From: Candidatus Woesearchaeota archaeon
Lineage (GTDB): Archaea > Nanobdellota > Nanobdellia > Woesearchaeales > B29-G15
Direction: 5' to 3'
Assembly: GCA_003650585.1 (NCBI GenBank)
Contig: QMQS01000001.1
Span: 1-35,775 of the forward strand
DNA: 35,775 nucleotides
Part shown: positions 1 through 33,116 of the stretch, one piece after another
How the letters are laid out: each line of letters begins with the position of its first letter
Position numbering within the stretch: position 1 is the stretch's first letter
Program-made: the position numbers and the translations under genes
Notes under the pieces: model-generated
Database searches by the model: none
What the model was told of the DNA's origin: nothing
The model's input: the letters and a program-made list of their open reading frames with translations, nothing else

Positions 1-40
1 AAATAATACTGTTAAATAAACCAAACTGAGGTGGTTAATT

Positions 41-763: not shown

Positions 764-765
764 GA

Positions 766-2924: not shown

Positions 2925-2946
2925 AATAGAAAAATATATATATGTG
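2925..2946 (+). promoter_or_regulatory. A/T-rich TATA-like element upstream of the six-gene surface operon
   Basis: AATAGAAAAATATATATATGTG sits in the 72-nt gap after metG. It is followed by a GAGGT Shine-Dalgarno (2978-2982) 9 nt before the ATG at 2992. Assigned by position and composition only. Confidence 0.4.
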
Positions 2947-2991
2947 GAACCTATTTTAGCAATTTGGATTTAACCCTGAGGTAATCGGGAA

Positions 2992-5130
2992 ATGAAAAGA
3001 AGAGGACAGGTTACAGTATACATTATTATAGCCCTTATAATTCTAATATCATTCTTGGTTCTTATCTACTTGAAGACAGGTATTAGAGGGGAGGAGGGAG
3101 AAGTTAGCACTGCAGTTGAGGAGGTGCCTGTCACATTCAAACCAATACAGCAGTATGTTGAGCACAACCTCCAATTGGCACTCCTCTCGGCAATCAAGAA
3201 TTTAGGCCAGCATGGTGGGTATGTTGACCCCTATACCTTTAGTCCACCCCCCAACTTGGACAACCCTACTGAAGCGATGGCGCTCAAGCCATTCCATTCT
3301 TCGACTAGGATATACCCTTACTGGTACTATATGGAATCCCCAAATTCCTGTGACAGCCATTGTTCCTTTAAAACCCTAATGCCTCCGCTCAGAAGCGAAT
3401 ACAAAGAGGGGGATCTAAGACCAAAGGATGATATGTCTATTGAGGCCCAGATAGATAGATATGTCAAAGCAAAACTCTCTGGCTTGGACTTCACCGATTT
3501 TAAGTTCCAGAACTTTGATGTGGTTAAACTGGCTGGACCAAAGGTCACAACCAGGATAGGCAAGGACAAGGTTTACGCAAGTGTGGTGTTCCCGCTTGAG
3601 GTTTCTAAAGAGGGTACAAGGGTGAGGCTGAGCAGCTTCAAGGCTAGTGTGCCAGTGGAACTCGAGAAAGTGTATGAGCTTGCTGGATTGATAACCAAGC
3701 ATGAACGCGACACACGGTTCATAGAGAGTTTTGTTGTTAACCTCCTGGGCACATACTCTGGCATTAACAAGGAGCGGTTGCCGCCTGTGGGGAGAACAGT
3801 TGAGTTCGGCACAAGCCCGGTGTATTGGCAACTTGATGATGTGAGGAATAAGGTCACAAGAGAGGTGTTGAGTAAGATATCTGGTATAAGTGTTAAGGGC
3901 ACTGCCAATTTCCACAACACAAACAACCAGTTCACAGGTGCAGTGGTCTCGCTTGGCGCCTCTAAGTTTGACGATATTGAGGTTTACTTTACCTTCCCTG
4001 ACACAAAACCATTTTATATGGCTATTAATGACCTCAGTAGTGGGTTTGTGGGTCCAAACACTATAACAAGGAATCTAATATTTTATAACTTTGTAATGAA
4101 TGAATATGCCTTTGCTTATGATCTATCTTTTCCAGTGCTTGTGACATTGAAACTGCCCAATGGGCTCAACAATGAGGATTACTTGTTCCAGTTTGCTTTA
4201 GAGGGTAACATCCGCTCCAATCAACCACTGTTTGAGGGTGCTAGCACCCTTAGCCCTGACACAGGGCACACAATGCTGTGTGATGAGGGACAAGAGCTCA
4301 GTGGTGATGTTGTAATCAGAACTAACACAAACGAGGGTCAACCGGTTGGGGATGTAGACCTCTACTACCATTGCGGTGGTGAGGGTTGCTACATTGGCAA
4401 GACAGACGCTACAGGCGTGCTTCACACAAAACTCCCTGTTTGTATTGGGGGTTTAATAGCTCCACTCAAGCAGCGCTATATAGGTGAGCCCGTGGAGTTT
4501 GATTCCTATCTTGACAAGCCAGGCCTAGTTACACTAACTCTAGATAAGACCAAGGCGTTTAAGCTTGAGGTTAACAAGCTGGTGTTTGAGCCAAGGGAGA
4601 CTTCATTTGGCTACAAATGGCCTCATGAATTGCCAGGGTTTCGTAGCTTGGGTTACACACCCAGGATTGAACCGTTGGAGGATGACGAAGAGGTCTTCGT
4701 TGTATTTAAGAGGATTGGCACGGGTGGCTTGACCACGTACCAATTCCCTGTGCAAGTGAAGGGAAGCGAAGCAGAGCTCCCAGAGGTTTTCCTTGCAGCA
4801 GGTGACTATGAGGTGCAAATGATGCTCATTAAGCACAGAGAGTTGGTCGTACCAGAGAACAAGTGTGGTCCTTTGAGCATAGGGTGCGTGCCCATGAACG
4901 AGACTGTGCTCAACTCTGTACAACTGGGTGGGGGCAATTTGAACGCCAACACTGGGTACTTCAAACTGCCATATGAATTGATGGACTCTGATAAGATTAC
5001 TCTGTATGCAGTTTATTTCAACATCTTTAGCATTCCGCAAGAAAATGTAAAACCAAAGGATTTGGGGGTTATATCAAGACTTGATGATTATTCGATGTAC
5101 TTTAGAAAATACAAACCGGGGTTTAGTTAA
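2992..5130 (+). CDS. large exported protein A1 (712 aa) with prepilin-like class III signal peptide, unknown family
   Basis: N-terminus MKRRG-QVTVYIIIALIILISFLVLIYL is a short basic leader ending in Gly followed by a hydrophobic helix. It is a paralog of 10911-12800, with collinear shared motifs: YV...L......AIK..G..GGY, [FY]PLEV, Y.F.YDL[ST][FY]PV.VT, and GKTD...LP. The segment VVIRTNTNEGQPVGDVDLYY..GKTDATGVL resembles a carboxypeptidase-regulatory-like beta sandwich (tentative). Confidence 0.85.
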   Translation: MKRRGQVTVYIIIALIILISFLVLIYLKTGIRGEEGEVSTAVEEVPVTFKPIQQYVEHNLQLALLSAIKNLGQHGGYVDPYTFSPPPNLDNPTEAMALKPFHSSTRIYPYWYYMESPNSCDSHCSFKTLMPPLRSEYKEGDLRPKDDMSIEAQIDRYVKAKLSGLDFTDFKFQNFDVVKLAGPKVTTRIGKDKVYASVVFPLEVSKEGTRVRLSSFKASVPVELEKVYELAGLITKHERDTRFIESFVVNLLGTYSGINKERLPPVGRTVEFGTSPVYWQLDDVRNKVTREVLSKISGISVKGTANFHNTNNQFTGAVVSLGASKFDDIEVYFTFPDTKPFYMAINDLSSGFVGPNTITRNLIFYNFVMNEYAFAYDLSFPVLVTLKLPNGLNNEDYLFQFALEGNIRSNQPLFEGASTLSPDTGHTMLCDEGQELSGDVVIRTNTNEGQPVGDVDLYYHCGGEGCYIGKTDATGVLHTKLPVCIGGLIAPLKQRYIGEPVEFDSYLDKPGLVTLTLDKTKAFKLEVNKLVFEPRETSFGYKWPHELPGFRSLGYTPRIEPLEDDEEVFVVFKRIGTGGLTTYQFPVQVKGSEAELPEVFLAAGDYEVQMMLIKHRELVVPENKCGPLSIGCVPMNETVLNSVQLGGGNLNANTGYFKLPYELMDSDKITLYAVYFNIFSIPQENVKPKDLGVISRLDDYSMYFRKYKPGFS

Positions 5131-8100
5131 ATGCGCACCAAAACAAGACTAGAGGCGTGGGCATTATGGATAGTTGCTTTTGTGTTGATGTCAGGGGTTG
5201 TTGAGGCCTCTGGCCACTTGTGGGATACAGTTATGTATGGGCAGGACCAGTTGCCCGGGTTCTTGCGTTCGTATGATAATTTCTATGCTGAGACTTATGC
5301 CGAGATTGATGGAGACTCAGAGATTACACCGGACCAGGTACGCTTTGGTCCATTAGAAACTCCGGCAGATATGTGCGTTTCTACCTTGGATGGGTACAAG
5401 TGTACTTTGAGTGTGAGTGACGAGGAATACTTGCCATCCCTTACGACTATACCAGTAAAGCTGTATGACGACTCTGGCCTGCTTGTGAATGAAACATTGT
5501 ATGACATTGTTGTGGACGGTTATGGTCCAGAGGTGGGTTTGTTGCTTGAGTCTGAGTTCACCAATGGGCAGCAGCCAGTGGTGGTAAACTACACTATCTT
5601 TGACACTGCCTTCCCAGATTCAGAGGTGTGCTCGGGCATAGGTGGCATCACAATTTCAATAGTTGGCGAAACAAATGAGACATTTGAGCTTAACCTTGAG
5701 GATTGCTTTGCTGAGGGGTCTGTGGAATTGGAGCTCAGCTCAGATGAGACATCATCTGAGGTGTGTGCTGTTGCCTATGATAGGTTGATGCAATCTGGGG
5801 CTTGGGAATGCGTGACTATTGGCATTGATTCAACCCTGCCTTATATACTCCCTGACTCACTCAGGTTTGAGTTTACTGACACCCCTGCTAACAATACCTT
5901 CCTTGCGCCAGGGGTTGCTTACCATGCTAATGTGTATGTGCGGGTTAATGAGAAGCATTTATCTGCCGAAGGGGTAACAGGCGATTTCTCAGCTGTAAAT
6001 TCGCAACAGAGCTCTTATGTGCTCAATGCAAGCGAGTGCTATCAGGTGGATGTTGATCTGTACGAGTGTGTGTTTGAGAATGTTGAGATTGTGTTGGGCT
6101 CAGAGAGCAATGTGGGGGTAGTAATTCAAGCAACAGACTTGGCAGGCAACACAGCCCAGTCCACGTTGTATTACTTGTTCATGCTGGATAGCACAGGCCC
6201 AGAGCCACTGAGCTTGATTATCAATGGTCAAGTGGGTGAGCCACAGTGGGTTGGCACGAGCATACCACTTGTTGAGGCAGACTTCTTGGAGGAGGGTGTT
6301 GGCTTGGTTGCCTCTCAAGTATACTTGGACCTCTCAAGTTTTGGCCTTGGTGAGGTGGCTGCAAACGATTGTTGGCAGCAAGACCAGGGTGTATGGCGTT
6401 GTACTTGGAATAATATCCAGATTGGAGCATCCACACAAGAGGAGGGTGTGATTGGCATTGGTTTGAGCACCACTGATGCAATCGGTAATCCCCTTGTTGG
6501 TGGGTTAAGCGTTACAGTACTGGTGGATTACTCACCACCAGAAATACTGAGCTTCAATCTCACTCAGCCAGAAGCGCCCTTCGAACTCCCGGACAATATG
6601 TACTTTGAGGGTATTCCTCTGGTGATGCACGCGAAAGTGCTTGAGGATAAGGAGCTTTTGAGTGTGCGCATTGACCCTGCTTGGATTAAGCTAATGGATA
6701 TATATAATGACACGAGTTTGATGGGCGGGCTAAACATCACAGCAAATGTTAGTTTGAATTTCACTGCTGATGTGAGCGAGTCTTGCAGTGCAGTTGGCGA
6801 TGGGATATGGGACTGCACCTATGTGCTAGAGTCTCCAGTGCCAGGGGTTTATGATGCGAGTTATGTGTTTGAGGATGCAGCTAAGAACCAGGTTATGCAA
6901 GAGAGTGACTTTACTGTGGTCGATTTGAGGCAGACAGAAACCCAATACTGGAATCTGGGTGAGGTTGAGAGAATGCCCTCTGCTGTGGATAGAAGCACTG
7001 CCCCATACATAAACCACCAGCTCTTGTTCCTTGTGCCACTTGTTAGGGTTGTTGGAGCAAGCTCAGGCGAATCCCAAGAGAGCTATTCACAACTCGATAC
7101 ACTGAGGGCACAGGGGTTGGACGTCAGCCCACCAGCCACAAGCGTGAGATTGCTTAAGGTATTGCTTGGCAATTGCTCTGGGGATACAAGTTATGTGTTG
7201 AGCAACACCATAGTTGATGGCTCTGATTTGGGCGAGTATCCATACATTGAGACAATACTGAAAAAAATGGAGATGCCATTGCGTGACCTCAATCTAACTT
7301 GCGAGATACAACTCTATTCACTTATCACTGCAGGTGAAGATGTCTGGGTGAATGAGAATCCAGAGGTAAAGTCTGTGGTGATGGAAATCCCCTTCTACGA
7401 TACAGAATTACCTAAAGAGGTTTTAGCCCAGAAGTTCGATGAGATTAAGCAGAGCACTGTTGTTAGGATGACTGACAACGAGTTGTTTAGGTTTGCCACT
7501 CAGATGGTAGAGTGGTCCAAGGTCGCTGCCAAAATGGACAATGCTTTACTACAAATTGCACAGGGATTAGAGGCCTTGGCTGGGTTGTGCCAGGGCTTGG
7601 CTTCTGGAGCAGACATCTGTGCCTTTGTTAGCACATTCTCACAAGGGGCAATGTCGTTACACGAGAGCGTGGCTCCGTTTATAGGTTGGCTCACTTGCGA
7701 TAAGACAATTGTGGGTGAGTTGATGCCTGATAGTGATTGGTACAAGACATGGAAGAACATGGGCATGTTCTTGGGTGGGGACTGGATGCTTGAGCAGGGT
7801 TACACAGAAGAGGAGATAACCAACCCGAAGAGGAGTCTTATAGCAAGCACTGCGATGCTATGCCTGCCGGGTATTGTAGACAACCTCAAACAGATGCGGG
7901 ATATAGAGTGTGGCTATGCATACTGCATACAAGAGGCATCCAAACTTGGAGTGCCATCAGATTATTGTAATGAGATTAGGGATTACGGTTGGTGTGTGGC
8001 TATGGGTGAAGAGGTACTGTACCTCATGCCGCTCCAGCATGTTTATAATGATGTTGCTGCAGCAGCGAACAGCGCCTTTACAAGCCCACTCCATTTGGTT

Positions 8101-8286
8101 GCAGAGGGTGCTGGGCTTATTTGTGAGTGGGGTGGCAATGTCGGGATTATGCAACATGTGTGCAACTTCATACTCATAGGCAAGATGCTCAATGGTGTCC
8201 AGATGGGGCTTGATGTGATTAACAATATGGCTGAGTACACAGCCCCAGTGGATTATTGTGCTCTATTGGAAAATGGTAACCAATAA
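5131..8286 (+). CDS. large secreted protein B1 (1051 aa): Sec signal peptide, about 5 Ig-like modules, C-terminal Cys-rich core; unknown family
   Basis: ATG directly abuts the A1 stop (TAAATG). Sec-type signal MRTKTRLEAWALWIVAFVLMSGVVEA-SG. Repeated domain-boundary motifs VDGYGPEV, IDSTLPYI, LDSTGPEP and VDYSPPEI are spaced about 104-120 aa apart. There are five C-x(8-14)-[WY]-x-C hairpin motifs and many NxS/T sequons. The C-terminal 260 aa is Cys-rich and alignable to B2. Confidence 0.85.
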   Translation: MRTKTRLEAWALWIVAFVLMSGVVEASGHLWDTVMYGQDQLPGFLRSYDNFYAETYAEIDGDSEITPDQVRFGPLETPADMCVSTLDGYKCTLSVSDEEYLPSLTTIPVKLYDDSGLLVNETLYDIVVDGYGPEVGLLLESEFTNGQQPVVVNYTIFDTAFPDSEVCSGIGGITISIVGETNETFELNLEDCFAEGSVELELSSDETSSEVCAVAYDRLMQSGAWECVTIGIDSTLPYILPDSLRFEFTDTPANNTFLAPGVAYHANVYVRVNEKHLSAEGVTGDFSAVNSQQSSYVLNASECYQVDVDLYECVFENVEIVLGSESNVGVVIQATDLAGNTAQSTLYYLFMLDSTGPEPLSLIINGQVGEPQWVGTSIPLVEADFLEEGVGLVASQVYLDLSSFGLGEVAANDCWQQDQGVWRCTWNNIQIGASTQEEGVIGIGLSTTDAIGNPLVGGLSVTVLVDYSPPEILSFNLTQPEAPFELPDNMYFEGIPLVMHAKVLEDKELLSVRIDPAWIKLMDIYNDTSLMGGLNITANVSLNFTADVSESCSAVGDGIWDCTYVLESPVPGVYDASYVFEDAAKNQVMQESDFTVVDLRQTETQYWNLGEVERMPSAVDRSTAPYINHQLLFLVPLVRVVGASSGESQESYSQLDTLRAQGLDVSPPATSVRLLKVLLGNCSGDTSYVLSNTIVDGSDLGEYPYIETILKKMEMPLRDLNLTCEIQLYSLITAGEDVWVNENPEVKSVVMEIPFYDTELPKEVLAQKFDEIKQSTVVRMTDNELFRFATQMVEWSKVAAKMDNALLQIAQGLEALAGLCQGLASGADICAFVSTFSQGAMSLHESVAPFIGWLTCDKTIVGELMPDSDWYKTWKNMGMFLGGDWMLEQGYTEEEITNPKRSLIASTAMLCLPGIVDNLKQMRDIECGYAYCIQEASKLGVPSDYCNEIRDYGWCVAMGEEVLYLMPLQHVYNDVAAAANSAFTSPLHLVAEGAGLICEWGGNVGIMQHVCNFILIGKMLNGVQMGLDVINNMAEYTAPVDYCALLENGNQ

Positions 8287-10117
8287 AGCTATGCTTGGAT
8301 TTGTTGCATTGATTTTGGTAATTGTCAGTGTTTCTATAGTGAGTGCTGAAGCACAAACTTACAATGTTTTGCTTACCCGTGATTCAGGAGAGGTTGTTTA
8401 CCTTGAGGAGGAAATTCAAGAGAACTTTGGTGAGCCAGGGCGGACTATGTACACTTATCGCGACCCTGACAATAGTATGCCTGTGTTCAGCATTGTTGTA
8501 GAGCCAGACGGCAGGGTCTTCTATCCAGGTACTAATGCATACTATGACTCATTTGATGGGGCGATGGCTGCTGCAAAATTACATTTAGAAAGCTACTCCC
8601 ATATTCAACAGATTGGATATTACTCGGCAGCAACTTCTGATATCGATTCAACCCTGCAGGAGGAGCAAACTCAAGCTCCACAAGGGGTGGTTAGTCAGGG
8701 GGAAAGTGCTACCACTACTAATGAGGGGGCTACGGTGGATAATCCAGTTGATGCTTCTGCTGCTTCACAAGCAGATGCTAGCACTACAGCAGGATTAGTG
8801 TGTACTGATGGTTTCTGTTACTTTACTTCACCCCACACGCCCTCTGACCTCAACCTCCCTCACTCCGGAGTAACACTCGATACCGGGTTTACCTTCTCAG
8901 GCGATTTCCAAACAAGGTTTCATTCTGTGCAGTCAATGGAAGAGATACCTGAGGGTGCAGAACGGATTAGCAACACCAATTATTATATTATCGAGAGGCC
9001 TGGTGGGATAGTGGATTATTATATACTCAGTACCGATGAAGAAACAGACCAGTTTGAGCCAGCCCCGGCAGAGGAAATAAACCAGAATGCTGATGTAGAG
9101 CAAACTGGTGCTGCCTCTAACTTGCCTGAAACGATTGAAGCCCAAGGGGTTACATTTATACACACCGAGGGCTCACTCTACAAATATACCACACCCAATG
9201 GTGAGAGCGTGTATTATGATACTGCTGCACAGAAATACTTTAAGCAAGATGGAGAGACACTCACAGAGATATCTGAAGAGAGTGCTATGGCACTAATCAA
9301 TGCCCCTACTACTGTACCACAACCTTTACCAGCCCCCGCTGATCCCTCTCAACCCAATCTTAAGAAGGTGCTTGTGGCATTGAGCCAGGAGTATGCCCCT
9401 GCTGCCTCAGGGTGGCTCTGGCTTTACTCATTGGCAGACCAAAAAGCCGCTCAGGATTTGAGGATGGCCTTCAGTGGTGATATAGGATTGCCCCAAACAG
9501 CAGCAGACTTTTTGTGCCAAGCCACACGGGACATAAACCCCAACCAAAACACAATGTTGGGTTATGATTGGGGTAAGATGCCTACACTCCAGTTACAGGC
9601 GATTAGGAGTACACCTATTGTATATCCCTCAAATAACACTAATGGCTCTGTTTCCACTCAGGGGCTTGTTGTTGAACCCAACCAAACCACTGAGGGAAAG
9701 GTGCTCTATTACACAAAAATCACGCTGAGGTTTGAGAATATACTTAACCCAATTGTGGATGTCAAGGACAAAACTTACGAGGTGTATCTCGCTGGTTATT
9801 CCGAGAGTAAGAAATTTGTGATAGACCTTGATCCCACATCCGAGGCTACCTCTCTAAAACTCAACTTCGGGAGTTTGACAATGGCTGGTAGGGATGCCAT
9901 AATCGAGTACTGGCCTGTGCGACTAGACAAGGTGTGCATAGAGTTCAAAGACCCAGAGCATATACTCAACCCCAAGTTCCTACAAAAGCTGCGCCCAGCC
10001 AACATGTTCTGTACCAAGGTTGTGGAGGTTAAGGATAAGTGGCTCGTGTATCAGCTGATGGGGGCAACAGGGAGTGCTGGTCCGAGTGAAGAGCAGGGCA
10101 ATGTGCTCCAAAGATGA
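8273..10117 (+). CDS. secreted protein C (about 614 aa): signal peptide, Tyr-rich short repeats, low-complexity linker, C-terminal domain homologous to an internal segment of B2
   Basis: ORF runs 8258-10117. I prefer the start at 8273 (MVTNKAMLGFVALILVIVSVSIVSA-EAQ) because it gives a classical n-region, hydrophobic region and AxA-like site; 8258 or 8291 remain possible. It overlaps the B1 stop. The C-terminal half shares MxFSxxIGxP..ATR..NP and PVRxDKVxxE[FW] with B2. Confidence 0.8.
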   Translation: MVTNKAMLGFVALILVIVSVSIVSAEAQTYNVLLTRDSGEVVYLEEEIQENFGEPGRTMYTYRDPDNSMPVFSIVVEPDGRVFYPGTNAYYDSFDGAMAAAKLHLESYSHIQQIGYYSAATSDIDSTLQEEQTQAPQGVVSQGESATTTNEGATVDNPVDASAASQADASTTAGLVCTDGFCYFTSPHTPSDLNLPHSGVTLDTGFTFSGDFQTRFHSVQSMEEIPEGAERISNTNYYIIERPGGIVDYYILSTDEETDQFEPAPAEEINQNADVEQTGAASNLPETIEAQGVTFIHTEGSLYKYTTPNGESVYYDTAAQKYFKQDGETLTEISEESAMALINAPTTVPQPLPAPADPSQPNLKKVLVALSQEYAPAASGWLWLYSLADQKAAQDLRMAFSGDIGLPQTAADFLCQATRDINPNQNTMLGYDWGKMPTLQLQAIRSTPIVYPSNNTNGSVSTQGLVVEPNQTTEGKVLYYTKITLRFENILNPIVDVKDKTYEVYLAGYSESKKFVIDLDPTSEATSLKLNFGSLTMAGRDAIIEYWPVRLDKVCIEFKDPEHILNPKFLQKLRPANMFCTKVVEVKDKWLVYQLMGATGSAGPSEEQGNVLQR

Positions 10118-10932
10118 GTTCCAGAGCGTTCCAAGCTCGTGCATCCAGGTTTCTCATGCTGTTTGCGGTTGAGTGGTTTACCTATGTTTTGATTCTTGGT
10201 GTGTTGAGTTGGTTGGGAAAATCAGCCAGTGTTGTTCTAAATAACATTGCTGTAACCCTAAGGGCAAAAACCACTGAATCAGCGACATCACTTGTGCTTA
10301 GAGAGCTAGCATGGTATGCTATTGCTGGCTTTGTTGCAATGCTGGTTATCTGGGTTCTATCTAGGATAATGGTGTGGCTGATACTAACCAAAACAAGAGC
10401 CAGCTCAAAGGGGATAATCAGACTTTTTCTATTGGGATTGCCCTACACATGCTTTAACTGGCTTTTGCTTGCAGGGGTGTTGTATATTGGTTACAAGGTG
10501 CTGGCTTTAATCGTGTTCATTCAACCCCCTTGGCTCGGTTATATTCTCGCATACCTTGTTTTTCTGGTTTTTCTAGGACCCTTAATGTTTAATATCACTT
10601 GTCTCAATAATCTGGCATACTACAACTATTTTCAGGGCAACCCCAATTGGTTGTTGTTCTACACTGCTCCCTTCCGCTTACGCCCCTTCTTCTCAAAACA
10701 GAAAAATTCAAATACTAAAACTGAATTTTTAAACAAATTGAAGCAGTGGGAGTTTGCCACGCTTGTGGTTTCGACCATCTTTGTGGCACTCAATCTCCTG
10801 TTTCAAGCGTTCAATCACCTTCCCACCACTCTTGGGCTAATGCTCATGCTTTTGTTTTATGTTTTGTTTGTGGTCTGGAGTAAGGTGTACATGGTTTCGG
10901 TGTTGAAAGGATGGCAAAAAGGGGTGCACTAG
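10114..10932 (+). CDS. polytopic membrane protein D (272 aa, about 6 predicted TM helices), unknown family
   Basis: ATGA start/stop overlap with the preceding ORF (10114-10117). The sequence consists of long hydrophobic stretches separated by short basic loops. No recognisable transporter or enzyme motif. Confidence 0.8.
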   Translation: MSSRAFQARASRFLMLFAVEWFTYVLILGVLSWLGKSASVVLNNIAVTLRAKTTESATSLVLRELAWYAIAGFVAMLVIWVLSRIMVWLILTKTRASSKGIIRLFLLGLPYTCFNWLLLAGVLYIGYKVLALIVFIQPPWLGYILAYLVFLVFLGPLMFNITCLNNLAYYNYFQGNPNWLLFYTAPFRLRPFFSKQKNSNTKTEFLNKLKQWEFATLVVSTIFVALNLLFQAFNHLPTTLGLMLMLLFYVLFVVWSKVYMVSVLKGWQKGVH

Positions 10933-12800
10933 CTCAAGTGAGCATTTTTATGGTGATTGCACTAATCATACTAATTGGTATTGGTGTGCTCATCTTTTTG
11001 AAGACTCGTGGTATGCTTGAAATGGGTGGTTCTGAGATACCTAAGGAATTCTTGCCAGTGAGCAAATATGTGGATTCGTGCCTGAGGAGAGTGGGCTTGG
11101 ATGCAATCAAGTTGGTGGGTGTCCAGGGTGGTTATGCAAGGGTACCGGAGGAGATAGCCAACAACCCTGAGGCATACCTGCCTTTGATAGGCAACTTGAA
11201 GATTCCCTTTTGGTATTATAACAACAAGAACCATGTGCCAAGCAAGAGGGATATTGAGCAGAGTATTGCTGAGTATATTGCCACGGAAATTCCAAATTGC
11301 TTGGGCGGGTTCGCGCCCCTGAACCACACATTTATTATAAAGCCCAGTGGTTCACCGAGAGTGAATGTATTTATTAAGGAGGAAGAGGTTGAACTTTCTT
11401 TGGATTATCCCTTGGAAGTTGCTACCCATAGCTCATCAGCAGAGATTAGGAAATTCAAACAGAGCGTGGATGTTAGACTGGGTAGGATACTTAGGCTTGC
11501 CCACGAGATAATGAATGCAGAGAACAGAGAGGCATGGTTAGAGAAGAGAACAATCGACCTTATGGCGACCATGCCTGACCGCGTAATACCCTTCACAAAC
11601 CTTGCCTTCAGTTGCTTGCCACTTGAATGGAAAACATCTGATGTAGAATCAGAACTCAAACAAACTCTGAAATACAATATACCCAGAGTGCGAGTGAAGA
11701 AAACCAAACACCTACCGTTTGAAAAGCCACTCGAATACTACGAGGGCTTAGGCAAAGGGATGGGTGGTGAGATACCAGGTGACATGGCAGAGTATGCAAT
11801 GCTACTATGGGACCCACTGAGTGAGGAGTTCAATGACTTGAGGGTGGGTTTTGTGTATATGCCAGAATGGGGTATGGAGTTTAAGGTTAGCCCATCCTCT
11901 TCAGGGTTGATGAAATCATACCCTGTACAGGGTAGGAGTTTTAAGGGAATAAATCTTGTGGGAACCTGCATACAGTTCTACCATTTTACTTATGACTTAA
12001 CTTATCCAGTGCGAGTTACTATCTTTGATTCGGCTTCTCTTGGAAACAATGGCTATTCCTTTAACTTTGCTTTCCCTGTCATAGTGTATCACAATACTGG
12101 TAAGAGATGGTTTGAGCCGGTGCGAGATGTAAGCTTATACGAGGGTGAGGACTTCTGTTCTGACACCTCTAGTGACAAATTCAGTGTGTTTGTGCAAGAC
12201 GCAACCACATACGAGAAGCTCAAGAATGTGAGCATAGCATTCACCTGCATACGCTATGTGTGTCCTTTGGGTAAAACTGACGAGGAATATGGCAGACTGC
12301 TCACACAGTTACCAGAGGGTTGCTATGGTGGGTTCATTGTGGCAGAGAAGAAGGGCTATCTAAAGGCAAAAAAACAGGTTGAAGGTGAGCAAACAACCAC
12401 TATATACATGCTACCAATGAAAGAAATGAATGTGAGTGTGCTCAAGTACAACAATGCTACGGGTAGCTATTCAGAGCTATCTGGTGAGGAGAAGGCATCC
12501 CTCTACCTTGACCTTGAGTCAGGAGACCATCAGGCATATGTGCTGGTAACACCAGGTACGCAAAGGGAGGTAAGCATAGTTAACTCAAATGTGGAGTATA
12601 TGGTTAACCTCTACCTCTTTGATGGAGAGGCTTTGGTGGGTGGATACAAAGGGGAGTGGGCTATAGAGCCAGCCCAACTCTCAGGCAAATCTATATTGGA
12701 GTTTTATGCGTATTATTTCCCAAACAAGAATCAGAGTGGTGTAATAGCTGCAATAAGCAAATTGCAGAACTCAACCACACTTACACCGAGGGCAAGATGA
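10911..12800 (+). CDS. large exported protein A2 (629 aa) with prepilin-like class III signal peptide, paralog of A1
   Basis: N-terminus MAKRG-ALAQVSIFMVIALIILIGIGVLIFL. It overlaps the D stop by 22 nt. Motifs are collinear with A1 (SKYVDSCLRRVGLDAIKLVGVQGGY, YPLEV, YHFTYDLTYPVRVT, CPLGKTDEEYGRLLTQLP). Confidence 0.85.
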   Translation: MAKRGALAQVSIFMVIALIILIGIGVLIFLKTRGMLEMGGSEIPKEFLPVSKYVDSCLRRVGLDAIKLVGVQGGYARVPEEIANNPEAYLPLIGNLKIPFWYYNNKNHVPSKRDIEQSIAEYIATEIPNCLGGFAPLNHTFIIKPSGSPRVNVFIKEEEVELSLDYPLEVATHSSSAEIRKFKQSVDVRLGRILRLAHEIMNAENREAWLEKRTIDLMATMPDRVIPFTNLAFSCLPLEWKTSDVESELKQTLKYNIPRVRVKKTKHLPFEKPLEYYEGLGKGMGGEIPGDMAEYAMLLWDPLSEEFNDLRVGFVYMPEWGMEFKVSPSSSGLMKSYPVQGRSFKGINLVGTCIQFYHFTYDLTYPVRVTIFDSASLGNNGYSFNFAFPVIVYHNTGKRWFEPVRDVSLYEGEDFCSDTSSDKFSVFVQDATTYEKLKNVSIAFTCIRYVCPLGKTDEEYGRLLTQLPEGCYGGFIVAEKKGYLKAKKQVEGEQTTTIYMLPMKEMNVSVLKYNNATGSYSELSGEEKASLYLDLESGDHQAYVLVTPGTQREVSIVNSNVEYMVNLYLFDGEALVGGYKGEWAIEPAQLSGKSILEFYAYYFPNKNQSGVIAAISKLQNSTTLTPRAR

Positions 12801-15800
12801 TAAGAGCAAAACTCTTCATTGGCATACTACTAATCTTTGTGGTTATGGGCATAGTTGGTGCTACTGCACCACAGATAAGTGATGTGAGGGCAGAGCCACA
12901 CGTATCTTATGTGGGTATTCACTGGAGGACAGATGTGCCTGCAAACAGCAAAGTGGAGTATGGCATAGCAGGGCTTGATTTGAGCAAGTTCAAGCCGGAG
13001 TTTACAACTGTACACAACCTTTACTTAACCAATATCCAATCCAACAAGGAGTATCAGTTTAAGGTGACTTCGTGTAATAATGATGGGTGTACAAGTTCGG
13101 ATGTGGGGAGTTTTAGCATAGCAGTGGCAGACACCACACCACCTGCTTTAACACTTGAACCAGTTGAGGCAGTGGTTTACACCAGCCAAATCGAGCTTAG
13201 GGGTAGTGTTGATGAGCCGTGCAATATATACGCTATTGTTAATGGTAATAAAACCCAGAACATAACCTCTAGCGGGGATTTTACATTAACACTTGAGCTC
13301 AATCAGGGTGAGAATGAGGTTGTGGTGGTTGCTGAGGACCAGAGCGGTAACCCAGCCCAAAAGAGCTTTTCTGTGGTTGCTGATTTCGAACCCACAGAGG
13401 TTTTGGAAATAAACCTGGACGAGCTGGATATGAGCACCAGTGCCAAACAGACATTGGTGGGTATTGTTAGCAAACCAGATGTGGAGATTACAGTGGATGT
13501 TGAGGGGCGCGAGTTTACCACTGTTGCAGACAGTGAGGGGCATTTCAGTGTGGAGATAGAGTTGAATGGCGAGGTTATTGGCACTGGCAGATTGAACCAT
13601 ATCGTGGTTACTGCCAAGGATAAATACGGTAGGGTTGACATGCTGGTTGACGGCTCAATCACCTTTATCAAGTGCGGTAGTGGTTCTGGTTGGACAGCCA
13701 ATTTCTATGACTTAACCCCTACAGAGGTGTTGCCAGACCATCTACTGAACGGAGTTGCCCAATTCGGGTTCAGGATGGACTTTGATTATGTGGGTGGTGG
13801 TAGGAATGCTTACATGGAAATGCTGCCATCATTAACCATACAACCCATGAGTCAAGCGAAGGCAAAGCGTTCAGATGAGGAACTCTTCTCTGGGGCTGTT
13901 GTGGAGTGTAATGAGGCAAGAGACAAGTGTTACTTCCTTGTCACTCTGGCGCCTTGGAGCGGTTCAAGGCAGGAATTATTGAATAAGAGCATGGTGAGGT
14001 TGCCCCTGATGGTTAGGTTGCAGTATGCCCATGAGGTTAATGGGCAGATGGAGCACAGGGTGCAGGAAGAATGCTTGGACATAAACTTGTACCTTGACCG
14101 CCGGCTTATAGATGTTTACAAACCCAACAGGATGCTTAACAGCACTATATCCTTCCTCAATTCAACACTAAGCGCTCTTGAAAGCGTTAGAAAGCCGATT
14201 GAGACTGCGAAATCATTTGTAATTACTGGGTGCTTTGCCCAAACAGTCATTGATTTTGTAACAAGACTAGGCATGCTCACCAAGTGTATGAGTGGCAGGG
14301 CTGAGGCAGAGGAGGCATACACCAGAGGCGATAAAACCTGTCCAGATGATGCGAGTGAGGGTTGCCAGTCATGCTTGGATGCGCTCTGGAGTGTGAGAGC
14401 AAGCGAAGTTGCAAGGAACTGGTTGTGCGATAGACTCTTTTGTCCCAGTGCTCCTACGATTGAGAAGCACAAGCAAACCTTTAGGGACCCAGTAACAAAG
14501 AGGGAGAGCCTCTGCAAGCAGAGCGAGAGCAGCGAGGGGTGTGAACAGGAGTATAAATTCGCTTGGGACACAGCAGGGTTGTTTGTTGATGAATGGGCCA
14601 GGGCAACCAAAGATACCTCAAAGCTAACAGATTTGGATTGGATAATAATGCAGAGCAACCAGTTCTGCCCAGCAATAAAGGGCTTCCCTGCTCAGATTAT
14701 TAAGGTTGGAACCAAGGAATACTTTATTGATGAGGACAAGAGGGTGTGGGAGGTTAGGCAAACCAGGTTTGCCCAGAGCCAGGGTGAGGTAGTTACTGTG
14801 TACAATGAACAATACACCAAGATTAGGGGACCTCTGGAACCTGGTAAGGATATTATCCCACAGCAAATTCTTGAGCTTATTCAGGGAGAGCAAGAGGAGA
14901 ACTATGTGTTTGACCCCACAGCAGGACCGTACGAGGCACTGGTGGGTGGTTGCCTGCCTGCAATAACAGGCTATATATCCCACTGGGAGTCAATCACAGA
15001 GGCAGTTAAGAGGTGCCTCGAGATGGTTAGGCTCAATGGTGAGGGCACTCCAGGGGTATGTAAGGCAGTGCTGAGCTATTATGTTTGTGATGCCATATGG
15101 GACTCACTGAGGTGTCTCGGTGGAGGCTTGACCGCTGGCACTGAAACTGATAGACCACAATCAGGTATGATTCAGTCCCTTTCAAGGATATCACAGGCAG
15201 CGAGTGCAGTGACTGACTCAGTTACAGGAAGATACGGCGAGACAGCAATGTTTGATACAATGTTCAGACAGCGGAAGTTAATACACGGGGCTTGCATTGG
15301 CTTCTTTACAGGTGATATGACCGAGTTTGATCTTAATGCGATGTTCAGTGCTGAAATTGGCATGCCAGCTTTGAGAAGCGAGGGGCTTGTTAGCCCAGCC
15401 ACAAGGCGTTACCTCACCAGCAACCCGTTTAACCAGGGTTGGGCTACCTTTATGTATCATATTGGTTATGCGCTAAATGCAGGGAGTGATTTGAATTATG
15501 AGTTAAAGCTGGTGTGCTCAAACGACCTCAGTTGTCCAGACTCCAACAACGAAGCCAACCCTGGTGCTTGCGATTGTTACACAAGGGGAGAGCAACTCAC
15601 ACGCACAATCGCATCTGGCACGCTCTCAGCAGGGGATATGGCGAATGAGGAGAAGTATATCAAACTAACTGAGCCAGTTAGGTATGACAAGGTGGTGCTG
15701 GAGTGGACCTACACGGACAACACAGGTGAGCAGCGCACAGACCGGATAGTAAGGCCAATAAAGCTTGTGGGTGAGTCACCACCCTCACACTGTGGATTCT

Positions 15801-16876
15801 CAAATGTGTTTGGCGAATACAGGTGTGAGTTTGAGTTGGGAGAGGAGGGAGCTGCTTTCTTCATTGGCACGCCCATGCCATCCCCACCTGCAGGTAGGCC
15901 ACGCCCGGATGTTTTCAGGGTGGGTGACAAGCTCGTTATCACTGGGCAAATAGGTGTGCAAATGCCAGAACAGGGTAGCCCTGTGCCCAGGTTCCTAACT
16001 GTTTTGATGACATCACACAATGGTGAGTTAGTGGCAGACAATACTGTAATGCTTAGCACAACCGGGAGCTACTTGTTGGAGTCCTTCCCGCAACTTTTCC
16101 CCACCATAACTCAAGACAATTTCAGGGACTCGGCTGGTAACCTTGATTGTGATAGGTATGACCTCAATCATCCAGCAACTTGGGATGTTTATGTTGTGAT
16201 ATACAAAGCTGAGCAGAGCGAGAGTGGTGAATGGAAGAGGACAGACGAGGTTGAGTTGTACGAGGGCCAGCCCCAGTACTTCCGACTACCGGTTTATGTG
16301 GCTTGCTCTGAAGAAGAGATTGGTGCACCACAGTGCCCCAACGGAGCCATCTGGGCCTCGCCACAAGAGTGTTGGTGCATGAGCGAGGGTGAAAGGCGAA
16401 TATTTAGCCCCAGTTCCGCTGAAGCCCAGGGCAAGTACTGCTGTAATGGTGTGGTTGCCACTGCGCCATGCGACGAGGCAGCACCAAAGTTCAACAGGGT
16501 GATGATTAGAACATGGGAAGCCCCAGAGAACGAGCCAGGGATATTGAGCAAGTCTGTTGAGCTTAGCCAGCTGCAGGATGGTGCTGTGTTGCTAATGCCT
16601 TACAATAAAGTGGAGTTCCCAGAGATATCTATATCAGACGATAGTGAGATTGAGCTCGAGCTTGTGGTTGATGGAAGCACGAGGGTGGGTGTTGGCTCAG
16701 GAGAGCCACAGCAGATAACCAGCTTTGAGTGGGAGCCAGAGATGGGTGGTGATTCCATAAAAGAGGTTACAATTCAGTTTGAGGCAAGGGATGTAAACGG
16801 CTTGGTTACTAGGTACCCACAGACGCCAAAGAGGGTTGAGCTTAGAAAGACACTTCTGCAGCCTATATCCTCTTAG
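12797..16876 (+). CDS. very large secreted protein B2 (1359 aa): signal peptide, Fn3-like and Ig-like domains, Cys-rich core shared with B1, C-like domain, extra C-terminal region
   Basis: I place the start at ATG 12797, which forms an ATGA overlap with the A2 stop and gives the signal peptide MIRAKLFIGILLIFVVMGIVGA-TA. VGIHWRTDVPANSKVEYG..YQFKV resembles an Fn3 or purple-acid-phosphatase N-terminal type domain. DTTPPALTL and GNPAQKSFSVV resemble Ig-like domain edges. The Cys spacing CLP.I-x16-C-x13/14-C-x8-C is shared with B1. Confidence 0.85.
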   Translation: MIRAKLFIGILLIFVVMGIVGATAPQISDVRAEPHVSYVGIHWRTDVPANSKVEYGIAGLDLSKFKPEFTTVHNLYLTNIQSNKEYQFKVTSCNNDGCTSSDVGSFSIAVADTTPPALTLEPVEAVVYTSQIELRGSVDEPCNIYAIVNGNKTQNITSSGDFTLTLELNQGENEVVVVAEDQSGNPAQKSFSVVADFEPTEVLEINLDELDMSTSAKQTLVGIVSKPDVEITVDVEGREFTTVADSEGHFSVEIELNGEVIGTGRLNHIVVTAKDKYGRVDMLVDGSITFIKCGSGSGWTANFYDLTPTEVLPDHLLNGVAQFGFRMDFDYVGGGRNAYMEMLPSLTIQPMSQAKAKRSDEELFSGAVVECNEARDKCYFLVTLAPWSGSRQELLNKSMVRLPLMVRLQYAHEVNGQMEHRVQEECLDINLYLDRRLIDVYKPNRMLNSTISFLNSTLSALESVRKPIETAKSFVITGCFAQTVIDFVTRLGMLTKCMSGRAEAEEAYTRGDKTCPDDASEGCQSCLDALWSVRASEVARNWLCDRLFCPSAPTIEKHKQTFRDPVTKRESLCKQSESSEGCEQEYKFAWDTAGLFVDEWARATKDTSKLTDLDWIIMQSNQFCPAIKGFPAQIIKVGTKEYFIDEDKRVWEVRQTRFAQSQGEVVTVYNEQYTKIRGPLEPGKDIIPQQILELIQGEQEENYVFDPTAGPYEALVGGCLPAITGYISHWESITEAVKRCLEMVRLNGEGTPGVCKAVLSYYVCDAIWDSLRCLGGGLTAGTETDRPQSGMIQSLSRISQAASAVTDSVTGRYGETAMFDTMFRQRKLIHGACIGFFTGDMTEFDLNAMFSAEIGMPALRSEGLVSPATRRYLTSNPFNQGWATFMYHIGYALNAGSDLNYELKLVCSNDLSCPDSNNEANPGACDCYTRGEQLTRTIASGTLSAGDMANEEKYIKLTEPVRYDKVVLEWTYTDNTGEQRTDRIVRPIKLVGESPPSHCGFSNVFGEYRCEFELGEEGAAFFIGTPMPSPPAGRPRPDVFRVGDKLVITGQIGVQMPEQGSPVPRFLTVLMTSHNGELVADNTVMLSTTGSYLLESFPQLFPTITQDNFRDSAGNLDCDRYDLNHPATWDVYVVIYKAEQSESGEWKRTDEVELYEGQPQYFRLPVYVACSEEEIGAPQCPNGAIWASPQECWCMSEGERRIFSPSSAEAQGKYCCNGVVATAPCDEAAPKFNRVMIRTWEAPENEPGILSKSVELSQLQDGAVLLMPYNKVEFPEISISDDSEIELELVVDGSTRVGVGSGEPQQITSFEWEPEMGGDSIKEVTIQFEARDVNGLVTRYPQTPKRVELRKTLLQPISS

Positions 16877-25236: not shown

Positions 25237-25413
25237 ATGGCTAAGCATATTCTCAAGTGCCAGGAATGTGGGGCTTACACACTCACTGAGCAGTGCAAGT
25301 GTGGGGGTGTGGCCGTGCCAGCCAAACCACCCAAGTATTCTCCTGAAGACCCGTATGGTGATTACAGGAGGCGTGCCAAGGAGGAGTATTGGAGGAGCAT
25401 TGGGCTGCTTTAG
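25237..25413 (+). CDS. nop10: H/ACA RNP protein Nop10
   Basis: MAKHILKCQECGAYTLTEQCKCGGVAVPAKPPKYSPEDPYGDYRRRAK carries the Nop10 zinc ribbon and the P-x-(K/R)-(Y/F)-SP-x-D motif. The start at 25237 lies 1 nt after the aIF2-alpha stop. Confidence 0.9.
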   Translation: MAKHILKCQECGAYTLTEQCKCGGVAVPAKPPKYSPEDPYGDYRRRAKEEYWRSIGLL

Positions 25414-26648: not shown

Positions 26649-26668
26649 ATGGGTAATGTGTGAAAAAT

Positions 26669-26682
26669 GTTTTATAACTTTT
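26669..26682 (-). promoter_or_regulatory. BRE/TATA-like element AAAAGTTATAAAAC (minus strand)
   Basis: Lies 20 nt upstream of the ATG at 26648 and inside the longer ORF version, which argues for the shorter CDS. Confidence 0.45.
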
Positions 26683-26714
26683 GCTGTTTGGCAAACTTTC
26701 AATACCATGAACAC

Positions 26715-30923: not shown

Positions 30924-33116
30924 TTAAACACCATGCACTATCTGTGATGTTTGTAGGATGGTGGAAGCAATTATGTTGAATATAAGGATGACCACAAATG
31001 TGATAATGCAGTAAAGCAGTGTGCTTTTGGTGAGGTGCTGCCCCTTGAGATAATTCTCTGAGAGCTTATCAGCACCATTCTCTATACCGTTCACCAGTAT
31101 GGTCATAACCCAAACAATCTCCACCACATAAAGCCCTACGATAATCTGGAAATGGTAAGCAGGCACGCCATCACCGAACATCGAGAGTACGCCCATGCCA
31201 CCCTGACCAAGGGCGGTTGTGCTGTCTATATTCTTTATTGATTCACGGAGTTGCGAGAGAATATTGACTATCATAGACGTAATCCCTATCACTATACCAG
31301 AGATTACTGGCGCCATGAAGTTTATCTGCTGCTTCATGCTTGAGATTATGTCCGCCATAAGGTCTCTGAGGCGTTCATTCACCCTGTGAATCTCCTTTAT
31401 GTATTCTGCCACGGTTAGCAGTGTACGAGAGGCAATCTGGGGTCCCTTCTTTGAACTCTCCAGAAGCACCTTCATTGAACTCTTGATTACATTGGATGGG
31501 AAGTACACCAAAGCCCCATTCTTTTTGTTAAAGATTGCGTCCCTAACATTCATTCCAGTGTTGGTGATGTTGTTGGCAACAATCCTAAAAAAAGCCCCAC
31601 TCTTGGTGTCCTTCATTACCTCAGCGACATTTTGGAATGCTATTTCAGTGGGTATCCCGTCCCCAATCCTGTTGCCCAGTTGGAACAAGCCAGAGGCGAA
31701 CTCTGTCTCGAGTTGTTTTGTGTCTTCCCTTATCTTTATCACATTCTTGGAGCGCAGCATGTAGTAGATTCCTACGCCTAAACCAACCCCTGCAGTTAAG
31801 AATAGGCTCATCAATACAGCACCAAGCCCGTATGGACCTATAACCCTAGTGTTGGTCATGTCCATCTTGTAGCCAAATATCTTGAAGTTCATAAACAGAG
31901 GCTTCTCGCTAAGGAGAACTGACTCAGGCACCATAAAGTGGTATAGCCAAGGGTAGAGCCCAATCAGAGCAAGCGTCATACCTATTGCGAGGGCTATATA
32001 GAGTGGGTTGATTTTAAACTCATACTTGCCAAATTTCAACAGCACATACTTGTATTTGTTGTATTCCGGAAATTCACTGCTTATGTCTGTCTCCCCATAA
32101 CCAGTGGGTCTTTTGGTCAGTATTACCCTTCCAAATATGTAAACTATTATTGGTAGGGTTATATTATAGAGTACTGCAAGATACAAAGCAACCCGCCCAG
32201 GTGGTAGGTTCTCAGAGGTCATGAAGCTGGTTACCATTGGCAGAATCACAAGCCCAAGGATTGGTAGAATGATACCGAGCATGTGGAGTATTGTTATTGG
32301 TGATTTCAACTCATGAGTGTAGTGGAGCATCTTCTCGTAGGTTTCGTTTAGAATTACCTCTAAGGCTTTCTCTATTAGTGCCAATCTGCGCTCTTCAGAT
32401 GGTTCGTAAAGAGAGGACTCAATGAGATGGAATGCCTCAATGAACTCCAAATTCCATTTGCGCCAGGTTTCTAAGTATGCATCAAGGCTTTCTTTAATGG
32501 AGTCGTATTTGCCTGTCTCCACATCCCAAAGCACCTTCCTTAGGTCTAGAGAGAGGGGCGGGCTTAGGTGCTCGGCAGCAAACTCTATTGCGTTCTCAAA
32601 ATTGCTTGTGTGCCTCATGTATGTAACAACATAGAATATGCACTGTACCATCTGGTTGCTTGCCTTTAATCTCCATGAGTTAGCAAAGAGGTATGGCAAC
32701 CTCTTTAAAAGAAGCATGAGCAGCAAACCAACGAGTGCAAAGTAAAGCACAAAGAACAGGGATTGGAACATTGCATAGCCCAGAAGCCCGCCAAACACAA
32801 TAACCAGAATTGGACCGAGATACGAAAGGGCTACAACCCCTTCTGGATTTACCTCTAGGTGGGATATTGTGATTGCCTCAAGGAGGTTGCTCCTCTCTGG
32901 CTCACCAGGTTTAATCTTGAGTACCCTCTCAGCAATATTACACGCTTTCTCATAGATGCTAAGGGGCTTTGGCAGGAATCTGCGTTTGAACTCTTGGTAC
33001 TCTTGTGTTGTTATCTTCCTTGTGAGCTGTCCCTGTGTGTCCTCTTTACCCAATAACTCAGAAGCAATCCTTCGTTTGTATTTCTCTATTATGTCCTCTT
33101 CATTGACACCTGGCAT
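30924..33116 (-). CDS. FlaJ/TadC/PilC-like polytopic membrane platform protein of an archaeal type IV pilus-like system (730 aa)
   Basis: Starts 1 nt after the stop of the upstream secretion ATPase. It has two cytoplasmic helical T2SSF-like regions (AIEFAAEHLSPPLSLDLRKVLWDVETG and FRIVANNITNTGMNVRDAIF) interleaved with about 8-9 hydrophobic helices. Confidence 0.8.
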   Translation of the reverse strand: MPGVNEEDIIEKYKRRIASELLGKEDTQGQLTRKITTQEYQEFKRRFLPKPLSIYEKACNIAERVLKIKPGEPERSNLLEAITISHLEVNPEGVVALSYLGPILVIVFGGLLGYAMFQSLFFVLYFALVGLLLMLLLKRLPYLFANSWRLKASNQMVQCIFYVVTYMRHTSNFENAIEFAAEHLSPPLSLDLRKVLWDVETGKYDSIKESLDAYLETWRKWNLEFIEAFHLIESSLYEPSEERRLALIEKALEVILNETYEKMLHYTHELKSPITILHMLGIILPILGLVILPMVTSFMTSENLPPGRVALYLAVLYNITLPIIVYIFGRVILTKRPTGYGETDISSEFPEYNKYKYVLLKFGKYEFKINPLYIALAIGMTLALIGLYPWLYHFMVPESVLLSEKPLFMNFKIFGYKMDMTNTRVIGPYGLGAVLMSLFLTAGVGLGVGIYYMLRSKNVIKIREDTKQLETEFASGLFQLGNRIGDGIPTEIAFQNVAEVMKDTKSGAFFRIVANNITNTGMNVRDAIFNKKNGALVYFPSNVIKSSMKVLLESSKKGPQIASRTLLTVAEYIKEIHRVNERLRDLMADIISSMKQQINFMAPVISGIVIGITSMIVNILSQLRESIKNIDSTTALGQGGMGVLSMFGDGVPAYHFQIIVGLYVVEIVWVMTILVNGIENGADKLSENYLKGQHLTKSTLLYCIITFVVILIFNIIASTILQTSQIVHGV

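Follow-up and report, generated by a model that had tools for sequence, protein, structure and literature searches.

Pilin-like N-termini in a widespread family of predicted archaeal surface proteins that are encoded beside giant secreted partners

The DNA analyzed here, termed the window, is a stretch of 35,775 nucleotides that comprises positions 1 to 35,775 of the forward strand of contig QMQS01000001.1 (assembly GCA_003650585.1) from Candidatus Woesearchaeota archaeon. A tightly packed cluster of six plus-strand genes, designated A1, B1, C, D, A2 and B2, occupies part of the window, and A1 corresponds to database entry DRJ48_00015 on this contig. A first-pass annotation, made from the sequence by itself, had singled out A1 and A2 as possible giant pilin-like subunits or, alternatively, as surface proteins anchored through a pilin-like N-terminus. 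Both open reading frames (ORFs), 2992-5130 and 10911-12800, exist with the N-termini that were described. The start of the operon probably lies upstream of A1, at a TATA-like box. The elements of the cluster are as follows, with a slash marking a predicted cut here and below.

2930..2943, plus strand: A/T-rich TATA-like box, AAAAATATATATAT, upstream of A1, read from the sequence and with a presumed function.
~2979-2983, plus strand: GAGGT motif resembling a ribosome binding site, between the TATA-like box and the A1 start.
2992..5130, plus strand: A1, an ORF of 712 amino acids that begins MKRRGQVTVYIIIALIILISFLVLIYLK..., A1-type member of the A family, modelled with AlphaFold2 (pLDDT 92.4).
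2992..3006, plus strand: A1 leader MKRRG, with the cut predicted from motif statistics after G5 (R at -2, G at -1).
3007..3072, plus strand: A1 hydrophobic helix Q6-L27, QVTVYIIIALIILISFLVLIYL, resembling the H-domain (alpha1N) of pilins by conservation and in the model.
3073..3126, plus strand: A1 linker, residues 28-45, variable and acidic (pLDDT ~53, identity 0.16).
3127..4266, plus strand: A1 ectodomain 1, alpha/beta, residues 46-425 (domain model pLDDT 94.8, pTM 0.92).
4267..5127, plus strand: A1 C-terminal beta-sandwich domains (CarboxypepD_reg/Ig-like) and terminal helix, with C430/C466, from the model and Foldseek.
5131..8286, plus strand: B1, 1051 amino acids, Sec-type signal, 25 Cys, cognate partner of A1, with a start codon that abuts the A1 stop.
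8258..10117, plus strand: C, 619 amino acids, Sec-type secreted, with ATG 8273 as the likelier start and weak similarity to the corresponding gene of related locus L001.
10114..10932, plus strand: D, 272 amino acids, polytopic membrane protein, overlapping C at one end and A2 at the other, without a family match and present in 3 sources only.
10911..12800, plus strand: A2, 629 amino acids, beginning MAKRGALAQVSIFMVIALIILIGIGVLIFLK..., A2-type paralogue with leader MAKRGALA and family site LA/Q9.
10935-11000, plus strand: A2 helix Q9-L30, following the LA/Q9 site.
12797..16876, plus strand: B2, ~1359 amino acids from ATG 12797, Sec-type signal, 40 Cys, Ig-like and Glucodextran_B domains, cognate partner of A2.

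The stop codon of A2 is joined with the start codon of B2 in an ATGA overlap. Scans of A1, A2, B1, C and D against Pfam and NCBIfam returned nothing useful, and those of B2 returned the Ig-like and Glucodextran_B domains only. The possibility that C is a second protein with a class III signal was rejected as its N-terminus carries a Sec-type VSA/E site.

The paralogy of A1 and A2 that had been proposed was evident in BLASTP, which aligned the two proteins with 27% identity over 529 columns (E 2e-29). The collinear motifs said to be shared by the pair (YV..L..AIK..G..GGY, [FY]PLEV, YDL[ST][FY]PV.VT and GKTD..LP) all fall within this alignment. The duplication is old, as was surmised originally: A1-type and A2-type genes are found together in 13 related loci, mostly 5-8 kb apart. 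A profile built from 22 homologues was run against 1.84 billion cluster representatives (clusters at 50% identity) and retrieved 9,332 proteins at E<=1e-3, of which 1,876 passed E<=1e-30, with matches that nearly all are 600-850 amino acids long and align from end to end. Neither A1 nor A2 matched any Pfam or NCBIfam model, and the single match in a sequence profile search of the PDB was to a designed protein and is irrelevant. From species-representative genomes 63 family loci were recovered, nearly all titled Woesearchaeota, Pacearchaeota, 'Nanoarchaeota' or Nanoarchaeia. Among the 63, 19 are titled 'uncultured Methanosarcinales' and one Aminicenantes; these titles are probably taxonomic mislabels or attach to misbinned contigs. 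The third-party annotation (TPA) records titled 'uncultured Methanosarcinales archaeon' that carry the module are L006, L007, L012-L014, L018, L019, L027, L028, L031, L035, L038, L039, L045 and L052; L036 is listed with the odd-titled module records, one of which is titled 'Aminicenantes bacterium'. Overall the homology searches describe the A proteins as a very large, lineage-specific and unannotated family of predicted surface proteins, found here only in genomes of Woesearchaeota, Pacearchaeota and 'Nanoarchaeota' (DPANN). In the literature that was searched, the family, its two cognate A-B modules and a link to the giant muralytic proteins of DPANN archaea were not described.

The N-terminus was characterized statistically with 158 full-length family representatives, and identity figures were derived from an alignment of 147 sequences, 146 of which were scored at the site. 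The pattern [KR][KR][GAS]-Q-[IV]-T-x-F followed by ~22 uncharged residues was present in 157 of the 158 representatives. Position -1 is G in 101, A in 40 and S in 14 (155/157, 99%), position -2 is K or R in 151/157 (96%), and position -3 is K or R in 137 representatives. The leader that precedes the Gln varies from 3 to 40 residues with a median of 7 and is unconserved upstream of -3, and the uncharged stretch that follows the Gln spans 21-29 residues with a median of 22 (157 representatives). Gln is at +1 in 146/146 sequences, Thr at +3 in 128 and Gly at +9 in 131 of the 146. Mean pairwise identity is 0.60 from -3 to +5 and 0.46 across the 22-residue helix, compared to 0.16 in the linker, 0.33 in ectodomain 1 and 0.27 in the C-terminal part, and the most conserved stretch of the entire family is mature residues 1-13, Q[IV]TxFII[I]G[I]x[L]L. 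Thus, constraint is strongest at the putative processing site and over the first 13 residues of the mature protein, which is the pattern expected of type IV pilins and not of a generic membrane anchor.

The main alternative is that the helix is an uncleaved type II signal anchor with N-in/C-out topology, so that A would be a membrane stalk for B in the way that SlaB anchors SlaA. This explanation is doubtful. An anchor leaves unexplained why an invariant Gln should follow G/A/S and K/R behind a variable, unconserved leader, and why the first 13 mature residues should be the best conserved of the family. Moreover, the residues that replace one another at -1 (G most often, A next and S third) are those seen at prepilin peptidase sites. 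Nevertheless, a helix, a flexible linker and an ectodomain in succession constitute a generic anchor layout, the module has S-layer genes for neighbors both in the window and in L001, and both the lack of a pilin profile match and the lack of a peptidase gene in the window are in keeping with an anchor.

The sites of the Epd pilins of M. maripaludis, KGQV, KGQL and RAQI, have been studied experimentally, and their peptidase, EppA, requires Gln at +1 (PMC4371748). The A family displays the same signature at -2, -1 and +1, [KR][GA]/Q, and then [IV][ST]. As the A-family site is the same as the KGQ-type sites of Epd proteins, processing by a prepilin peptidase is likely, and cleavage of the A proteins by such an enzyme is favored here with reasonable confidence. 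The prepilin-type (class III) signal that was initially read from two N-termini is borne out by a [KR][GAS]/Q motif that is near-invariant across a huge and divergent family, behind a leader that varies, and that matches the Epd sites. A proteins, at 600-800 amino acids or more and with F or Y at +5, differ from the Epd pilins, which are small, are encoded within a pilus operon or close to one and are reported to have Glu at +5; the class III signal domain of Epd pilins is known as DUF361, and the N-termini of A proteins match no Pfam family. According to the FlaFind-type rule, reportedly that of Szabo et al. 2007, a charged residue (K/R/D/E) at -2 and G or A at -1, close to the N-terminus, are followed directly by an uncharged hydrophobic stretch of ~20 residues. 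A FlaFind-like rule was applied to all ORFs and all start codons of the window. In its strict form, the rule selected A1 alone, in which R4-G5 provides -2 and -1, and a looser form also picked up A2, together with segments that are internal or of Sec type. These results, like the conservation across the 158 representatives, show that the N-terminal pattern did not arise by chance. Class III signals have been recorded already on large non-pilin proteins, among them the bindosome subunits and many FlaFind positives, and the A family would widen the range of non-pilin proteins that apparently use the archaeal class III route.

The site in A2 was understood only in part at first. The N-terminus is as described, but the cut that was proposed, KRG/ALAQ, is an alternative to the family-conserved site, ...LA/QVSIF. 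The upstream KRG/A site has suitable residues at -2 and -1 and fails a FlaFind-type rule at +4 (Q). Orthologues of A2 read KRGVKG/Q and KRGRKG/Q and so keep K at -2, which implies that A2 of the window (KRGALA/Q) has lost the basic residue at that position.

ORFs of related loci were searched for a prepilin peptidase with the verified FlaK sequence (PDB 3S0X) as query. In L066, a locus of Pacearchaeota, a Peptidase_A24 protein of 286 amino acids (Pfam 3.9e-13, GGGD motif) is encoded 6 kb from an A gene whose product has the site NKKA/QITFF and a partner of 2286 amino acids. The peptidase has 619 homologues at E<=1e-5, and those with a named source belong to Pacearchaeota or unclassified archaea; the DRJ48 tag was not present among the 120 peptidase homologues listed. 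The A24 gene in L066 and its homologues thus indicate that the lineage possesses a prepilin peptidase. Within the window, D was considered as a cryptic enzyme of this kind and was rejected: the protein has no Asp residue at all and hence cannot be an aspartyl peptidase.

The structure of A1 was modelled with AlphaFold2 using 147 sequences, which gave a predicted local distance difference test (pLDDT) value of 92.4. The model consists of a helix (residues 4-33), a linker (34-46, pLDDT ~53), an alpha/beta domain (46-425), two beta-sandwich domains and a C-terminal helix. Across the family the linker has a median of 18 residues and varies in both length and sequence. The most conserved motifs of the ectodomain, YD.SFPV.V and FALEGNIRNN, are within ectodomain 1. 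Residues 44-425 were remodelled separately (pLDDT 94.8, predicted template modelling (pTM) score 0.92) and showed no significant match, the best being E 0.026 in the PDB and E 0.004 in BFVD. The whole model matched only tandem beta-sandwich proteins when compared to the PDB with Foldseek (TM<=0.15), including Gram-positive pilins, adhesins, SlaB (8qox_B, E 9.6e-5) and, locally, the beta-sandwich of carboxypeptidases N and D (2nsm, 3mn8); the presence of SlaB in this set is in favor of the signal anchor described above. A pilin or pseudopilin fold was not found in Foldseek searches of the PDB with either the whole chain or residues 44-425, and the N-terminal helix of A1 is not continued into a helix packed on a beta-sheet. 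The Cys pair C430/C466 is present in 145/147 family sequences and the pair C59/C165 in 137/147, A2 included. Both members of the second pair are lost in the same ten sequences, which form the A1 clade, and A1 itself has N and L at residues 59 and 165 (window 3166-3168 and 3484-3486). This pattern of joint loss is the signature of a dispensable disulfide. The conserved Cys pairs, which are likely disulfides, are consistent with an extracellular location of the ectodomain.

These features count against the view that A1 and A2 are giant pilin subunits. An uninterrupted alpha-1 helix on a beta-sheet is missing from the model, neither a pilin fold nor a pilin profile was detected, and the relevant ATPase is encoded within 10 kb in few of the sources, as detailed below. 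A giant major pilin that forms the shaft of a thick filament is disfavored to the point of being hardly credible: the class III-like N-terminus is its sole attraction, whereas the 70-80 kDa ectodomain sits on a flexible linker without a pilin fold, and each A gene is coupled obligatorily, 1:1, to that of a partner that is larger still. The second possibility raised initially, surface proteins anchored by a pilin-like N-terminus in the manner of the Sulfolobus bindosome, fits better with a helix, a variable linker of ~18 residues and a large globular ectodomain.

Partner genes were analyzed with ORFs from 67 sources in which 74 A genes could be evaluated. A gene of the B family is directly downstream of A in 59/74 cases, most commonly with a 4-nt overlap, and for several of the remaining A genes the next ORF encodes another giant Cys-rich protein with a Sec signal (1021-2943 amino acids). 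The pairing is cognate, with A1 type accompanied by B1 type in 35/37 instances and A2 type by B2 type in 12/12. The coupling of A and B, which was absent from the first-pass annotation and constitutes the main context of the A genes, appears from gene order to be obligatory and translational. B proteins carry a Sec-type signal, and their Cys count has a median of 29. No membrane anchor was discerned by eye in B1, and therefore something must hold B proteins at the surface if they are retained there. BLASTP detected no similarity between B1 and B2; an iterated B1 profile (jackhmmer) retrieves B2, and transitive BLAST links the two through a Cys-rich region (CLPxI...C...C). The B2-type partners of relatives terminate in an SLT domain (L003 11842-18414, 1e-19) or in a Glucosaminidase domain of GH73 type (L066 9796-16653, 2.7e-14). 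Giant lytic-transglycosylase proteins of these lineages were proposed previously to target bacterial walls (Castelle et al. 2021, PMC8204110; Vigneron et al. 2022, PMC9723730).

A third family recurs downstream of A-B in relatives, including L012 6153-11273, L020 15594-22001, L017 9150-14849, L007 12445-15960 and L016 16450-18912, among other loci. Its members range from 148 to 2135 amino acids, and their N-terminus, ...NKTAKG/LVSLITIIVLLSSILATSIYYxNNITANV, is a second flavor of class III-like site with L or I at +1. Several, including those of L012 (4e-27), L020, L017 and L007, contain an SLT lytic transglycosylase domain near the N-terminus. The family matches by description the giant DPANN transglycosylases in the retrieved passages of Castelle et al. 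2021 (PMC8204110), which make no mention of a prepilin-like N-terminus or an upstream A family.

The right part of the window contains two genes that may bear on the assembly of type IV filaments.

33118..35406, minus strand: FlaI/PilB-family type IV filament ATPase, 762 amino acids (Pfam T2SSE 3.4e-15; NCBIfam FlaI 8e-40, below the curated cut-off).
30924..33116, minus strand: polytopic membrane protein of 730 amino acids, possibly a divergent platform (TadC/FlaJ-like), adjoining the ATPase and with a weak T2SSF link.

The pair lies on the opposite strand, ~14 kb past the 3' end of the A1-B2 operon, and the ATPase has a long N-terminal extension. The 730-residue protein matched nothing in Pfam or in sequence searches of the PDB, and hhalign aligned it only weakly with a T2SSF protein (E 2e-4, probability 47%). 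The two proteins are conserved at ~60% identity in 249 metagenomic stretches, and their genes are adjacent in 72/80 loci (L067-L146). Small class III-like ORFs (KRG/QGLS..., KKG/DISM...) are present downstream of the pair in a few of these loci (L129 18413-18790, L143 13360-13731). In L093 an A-family gene is ~6 kb from the same pair. L004 is the closest relative, with an A1 that is 55% identical, and contains a T2SSE gene and two T2SSF genes 4-10 kb upstream of the A1 orthologue. Window positions 1-2919 are syntenic with L004 1-9633 (127-kb contig) up to the left end of the window, through an ORF of 240 amino acids (55% identical), the methionyl-tRNA synthetase gene (MetRS), A1 and B1. As this synteny extends to the end of the contig, a T2SSE gene, two T2SSF genes and a gene for an 834-residue tetratricopeptide repeat (TPR) protein are probably located just beyond the left end. 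A layout with two platform genes is that of 'system 1' (Epd-like) and of subsystem 4A in some DPANN archaea (preprint 10.64898/2026.04.22.720090). It is possible that the 762-residue ATPase is the assembly motor for A proteins. The link of filament machinery to the A family is suggestive and is not that of a conserved operon.

These genes bring into consideration a true type IV filament, in which a PilB/PilC-type machine would build A1 and A2 into the structure as tip or minor pilins that present or push out B, like GspK or PilY1-associated minor pilins and the modular pilins of bacteria. The ATPase and putative platform in the window, the location of the same pair in L093 and the T2SSE/T2SSF locus of L004 all accord with this proposal, as does conservation that reaches +13 and includes G at +9, as if for helix packing or recognition by a platform. 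It is judged unlikely, however, as the model lacks a continuous alpha-1 on a beta-sheet and a variable, low-confidence linker separates helix and ectodomain; searches turned up neither a pilin nor a pseudopilin fold, the genes for ATPase and platform are not tied to the A genes in a conserved operon, and the cluster encodes no small major pilin. A bolder scheme, at present a long shot, assigns the working end of a pseudopilus, similar to that of type II secretion (T2S) or a bindosome, to the A-B modules and the class III-like SLT giants from the clusters of relatives. In Woesearchaeota and Pacearchaeota, A proteins processed by a prepilin peptidase would then be assembled by the FlaI-like ATPase and platform and would carry or push giant Cys-rich effectors and adhesins, muralytic ones included, across the S-layer to bacterial hosts; such a pilin-based device for attachment and attack would be unique to these DPANN archaea.

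The interpretation to which roughly even weight is given is that A1 and A2 are bindosome-like, pilin-anchored holders of giant secreted proteins in a surface complex that contacts host cells. The A protein would be made with a class III signal comprising a short basic leader, [KR][GAS]/Q and a 22-residue hydrophobic helix, and would insert N-in/C-out. An A24 prepilin peptidase most likely would clip the leader just before the invariant Gln, and mature A would stay attached by its pilin-like helix, either as a membrane stalk or in a short assembly resembling a bindosome or pseudopilus. A flexible linker of ~18 residues would carry the disulfide-bonded ectodomain, in which a domain for which no structural relative was found precedes the beta-sandwich domains. 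The ectodomain in turn may hold the cognate, Cys-rich, Sec-secreted giant encoded immediately downstream, A1 with B1 and A2 with B2. Together A and B would form a surface complex that contacts other cells and that in some relatives includes peptidoglycan-degrading domains. That A holds B at the surface is suggested by their strict, co-diversifying coupling. Given the muralytic domains present in relatives, bacterial cells may be what the complex contacts and, in some lineages, what it attacks. The motif and its conservation, the paralogy, the modelled architecture, the gene coupling and the cognate pairing are direct results of the analysis; cleavage, binding of A to B and a role in host contact are inferred. 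The succession of helix, variable linker and non-pilin ectodomain, coupled with the absence of operon linkage, favors a bindosome-like anchor over a filament subunit, although the deep conservation of the mature helix leaves some room for a tip, minor-pilin or pseudopilus role.

Several observations weigh against this interpretation. A prepilin peptidase gene was not found within the 35.8-kb window, and Pfam and NCBIfam searches at E<=10 with isolated N-termini and full-length proteins identified no pilin or class III profile. The conserved site of A2, L7-A8, departs from the rule at -2, which is Leu. Residue +5 is F (129) or Y (14) in 146 sequences, whereas EppA substrates are reported in review to have Glu at this position (PMC4371748). 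A T2SSE ATPase is encoded within 10 kb of an A gene in just 2/67 sources. No muralytic domain was detectable in B1, B2 and C of the window in Pfam and NCBIfam scans. Finally, the proposed physical interaction of A and B is based on gene coupling and co-diversification only.

The closest known systems include the sugar-binding proteins of the Sulfolobus bindosome, such as GlcS and AraS, which have class III signals, are processed by PibD and are assembled by Bas (PMC4371748). Like bindosome substrates, A proteins have a large non-pilin ectodomain, several times the size of a pilin, on a prepilin-type leader, helix and flexible linker, and their genes apparently lie outside a pilus operon. In contrast, the A ectodomain matches no solute-binding family, the site has Q at +1 unlike PibD-type sites, and each A protein has a coupled secreted partner that is giant and Cys-rich. 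A Bas system was not identified, as the BasE profile scored 61 bits (7e-17) compared to a cut-off of 1000. Large or modular minor pilins of bacteria, namely PilB/PilC of S. sanguinis, GspK and CofB/TcpB, have been suggested to be tip or adhesion subunits (PMC8179133). They resemble the A proteins in that a pilin-type N-terminus bears bulky adhesive modules, but they retain a full pilin module (alpha-1 packed on a beta-sheet) and a pilus operon, and the A family apparently has neither. SlaB and SlaA of Sulfolobales are similar in that a membrane-anchored protein rich in beta-sandwiches is combined with a much larger secreted partner that is encoded by a neighboring gene. However, SlaB has a C-terminal anchor helix, no class III motif and no sequence homology to A, and a separate S-layer gene of the S_layer_C type is present in the window. 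The murein-like lytic transglycosylases of fam00969, as portrayed in the passages retrieved from Castelle et al. 2021 (PMC8204110), occur in the same lineages and, in relatives, in the same clusters; unlike them, A1 and A2 lack a hydrolase domain and none is detectable in B1, B2 and C of the window.

Woesearchaeota and Pacearchaeota are abundant, uncultured and presumably host-dependent, and the source of the window is a tiny symbiotic archaeon. With thousands of clusters and usually two copies per locus, the A family would be among the most widespread surface components of these archaea. The combination of a prepilin-type signal, strict pairing with a Cys-rich giant, and lytic-transglycosylase giants in the clusters of relatives provides a concrete model of a contact apparatus. 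A predicted N-terminal peptide, pyroGlu-[IV]T.FIIIG, offers a handle on the family for metaproteomics.

Elsewhere in the window, an ORF of 434 amino acids (25410-26714, minus strand) between eIF2-alpha and a PAC2-like gene has a sub-threshold match to phosphoribosyltransferases (E 0.007). The window also includes SppA and an S-layer gene (19404-21722), the latter of the S_layer_C type and 2.5 kb downstream of B2. In L001/L002 an S-layer gene (L001 7069-9477) is directly upstream of A in divergent orientation. Such an association with the A-B cluster was not seen in the majority of loci, for which rapid divergence of S-layer proteins is a possible reason.

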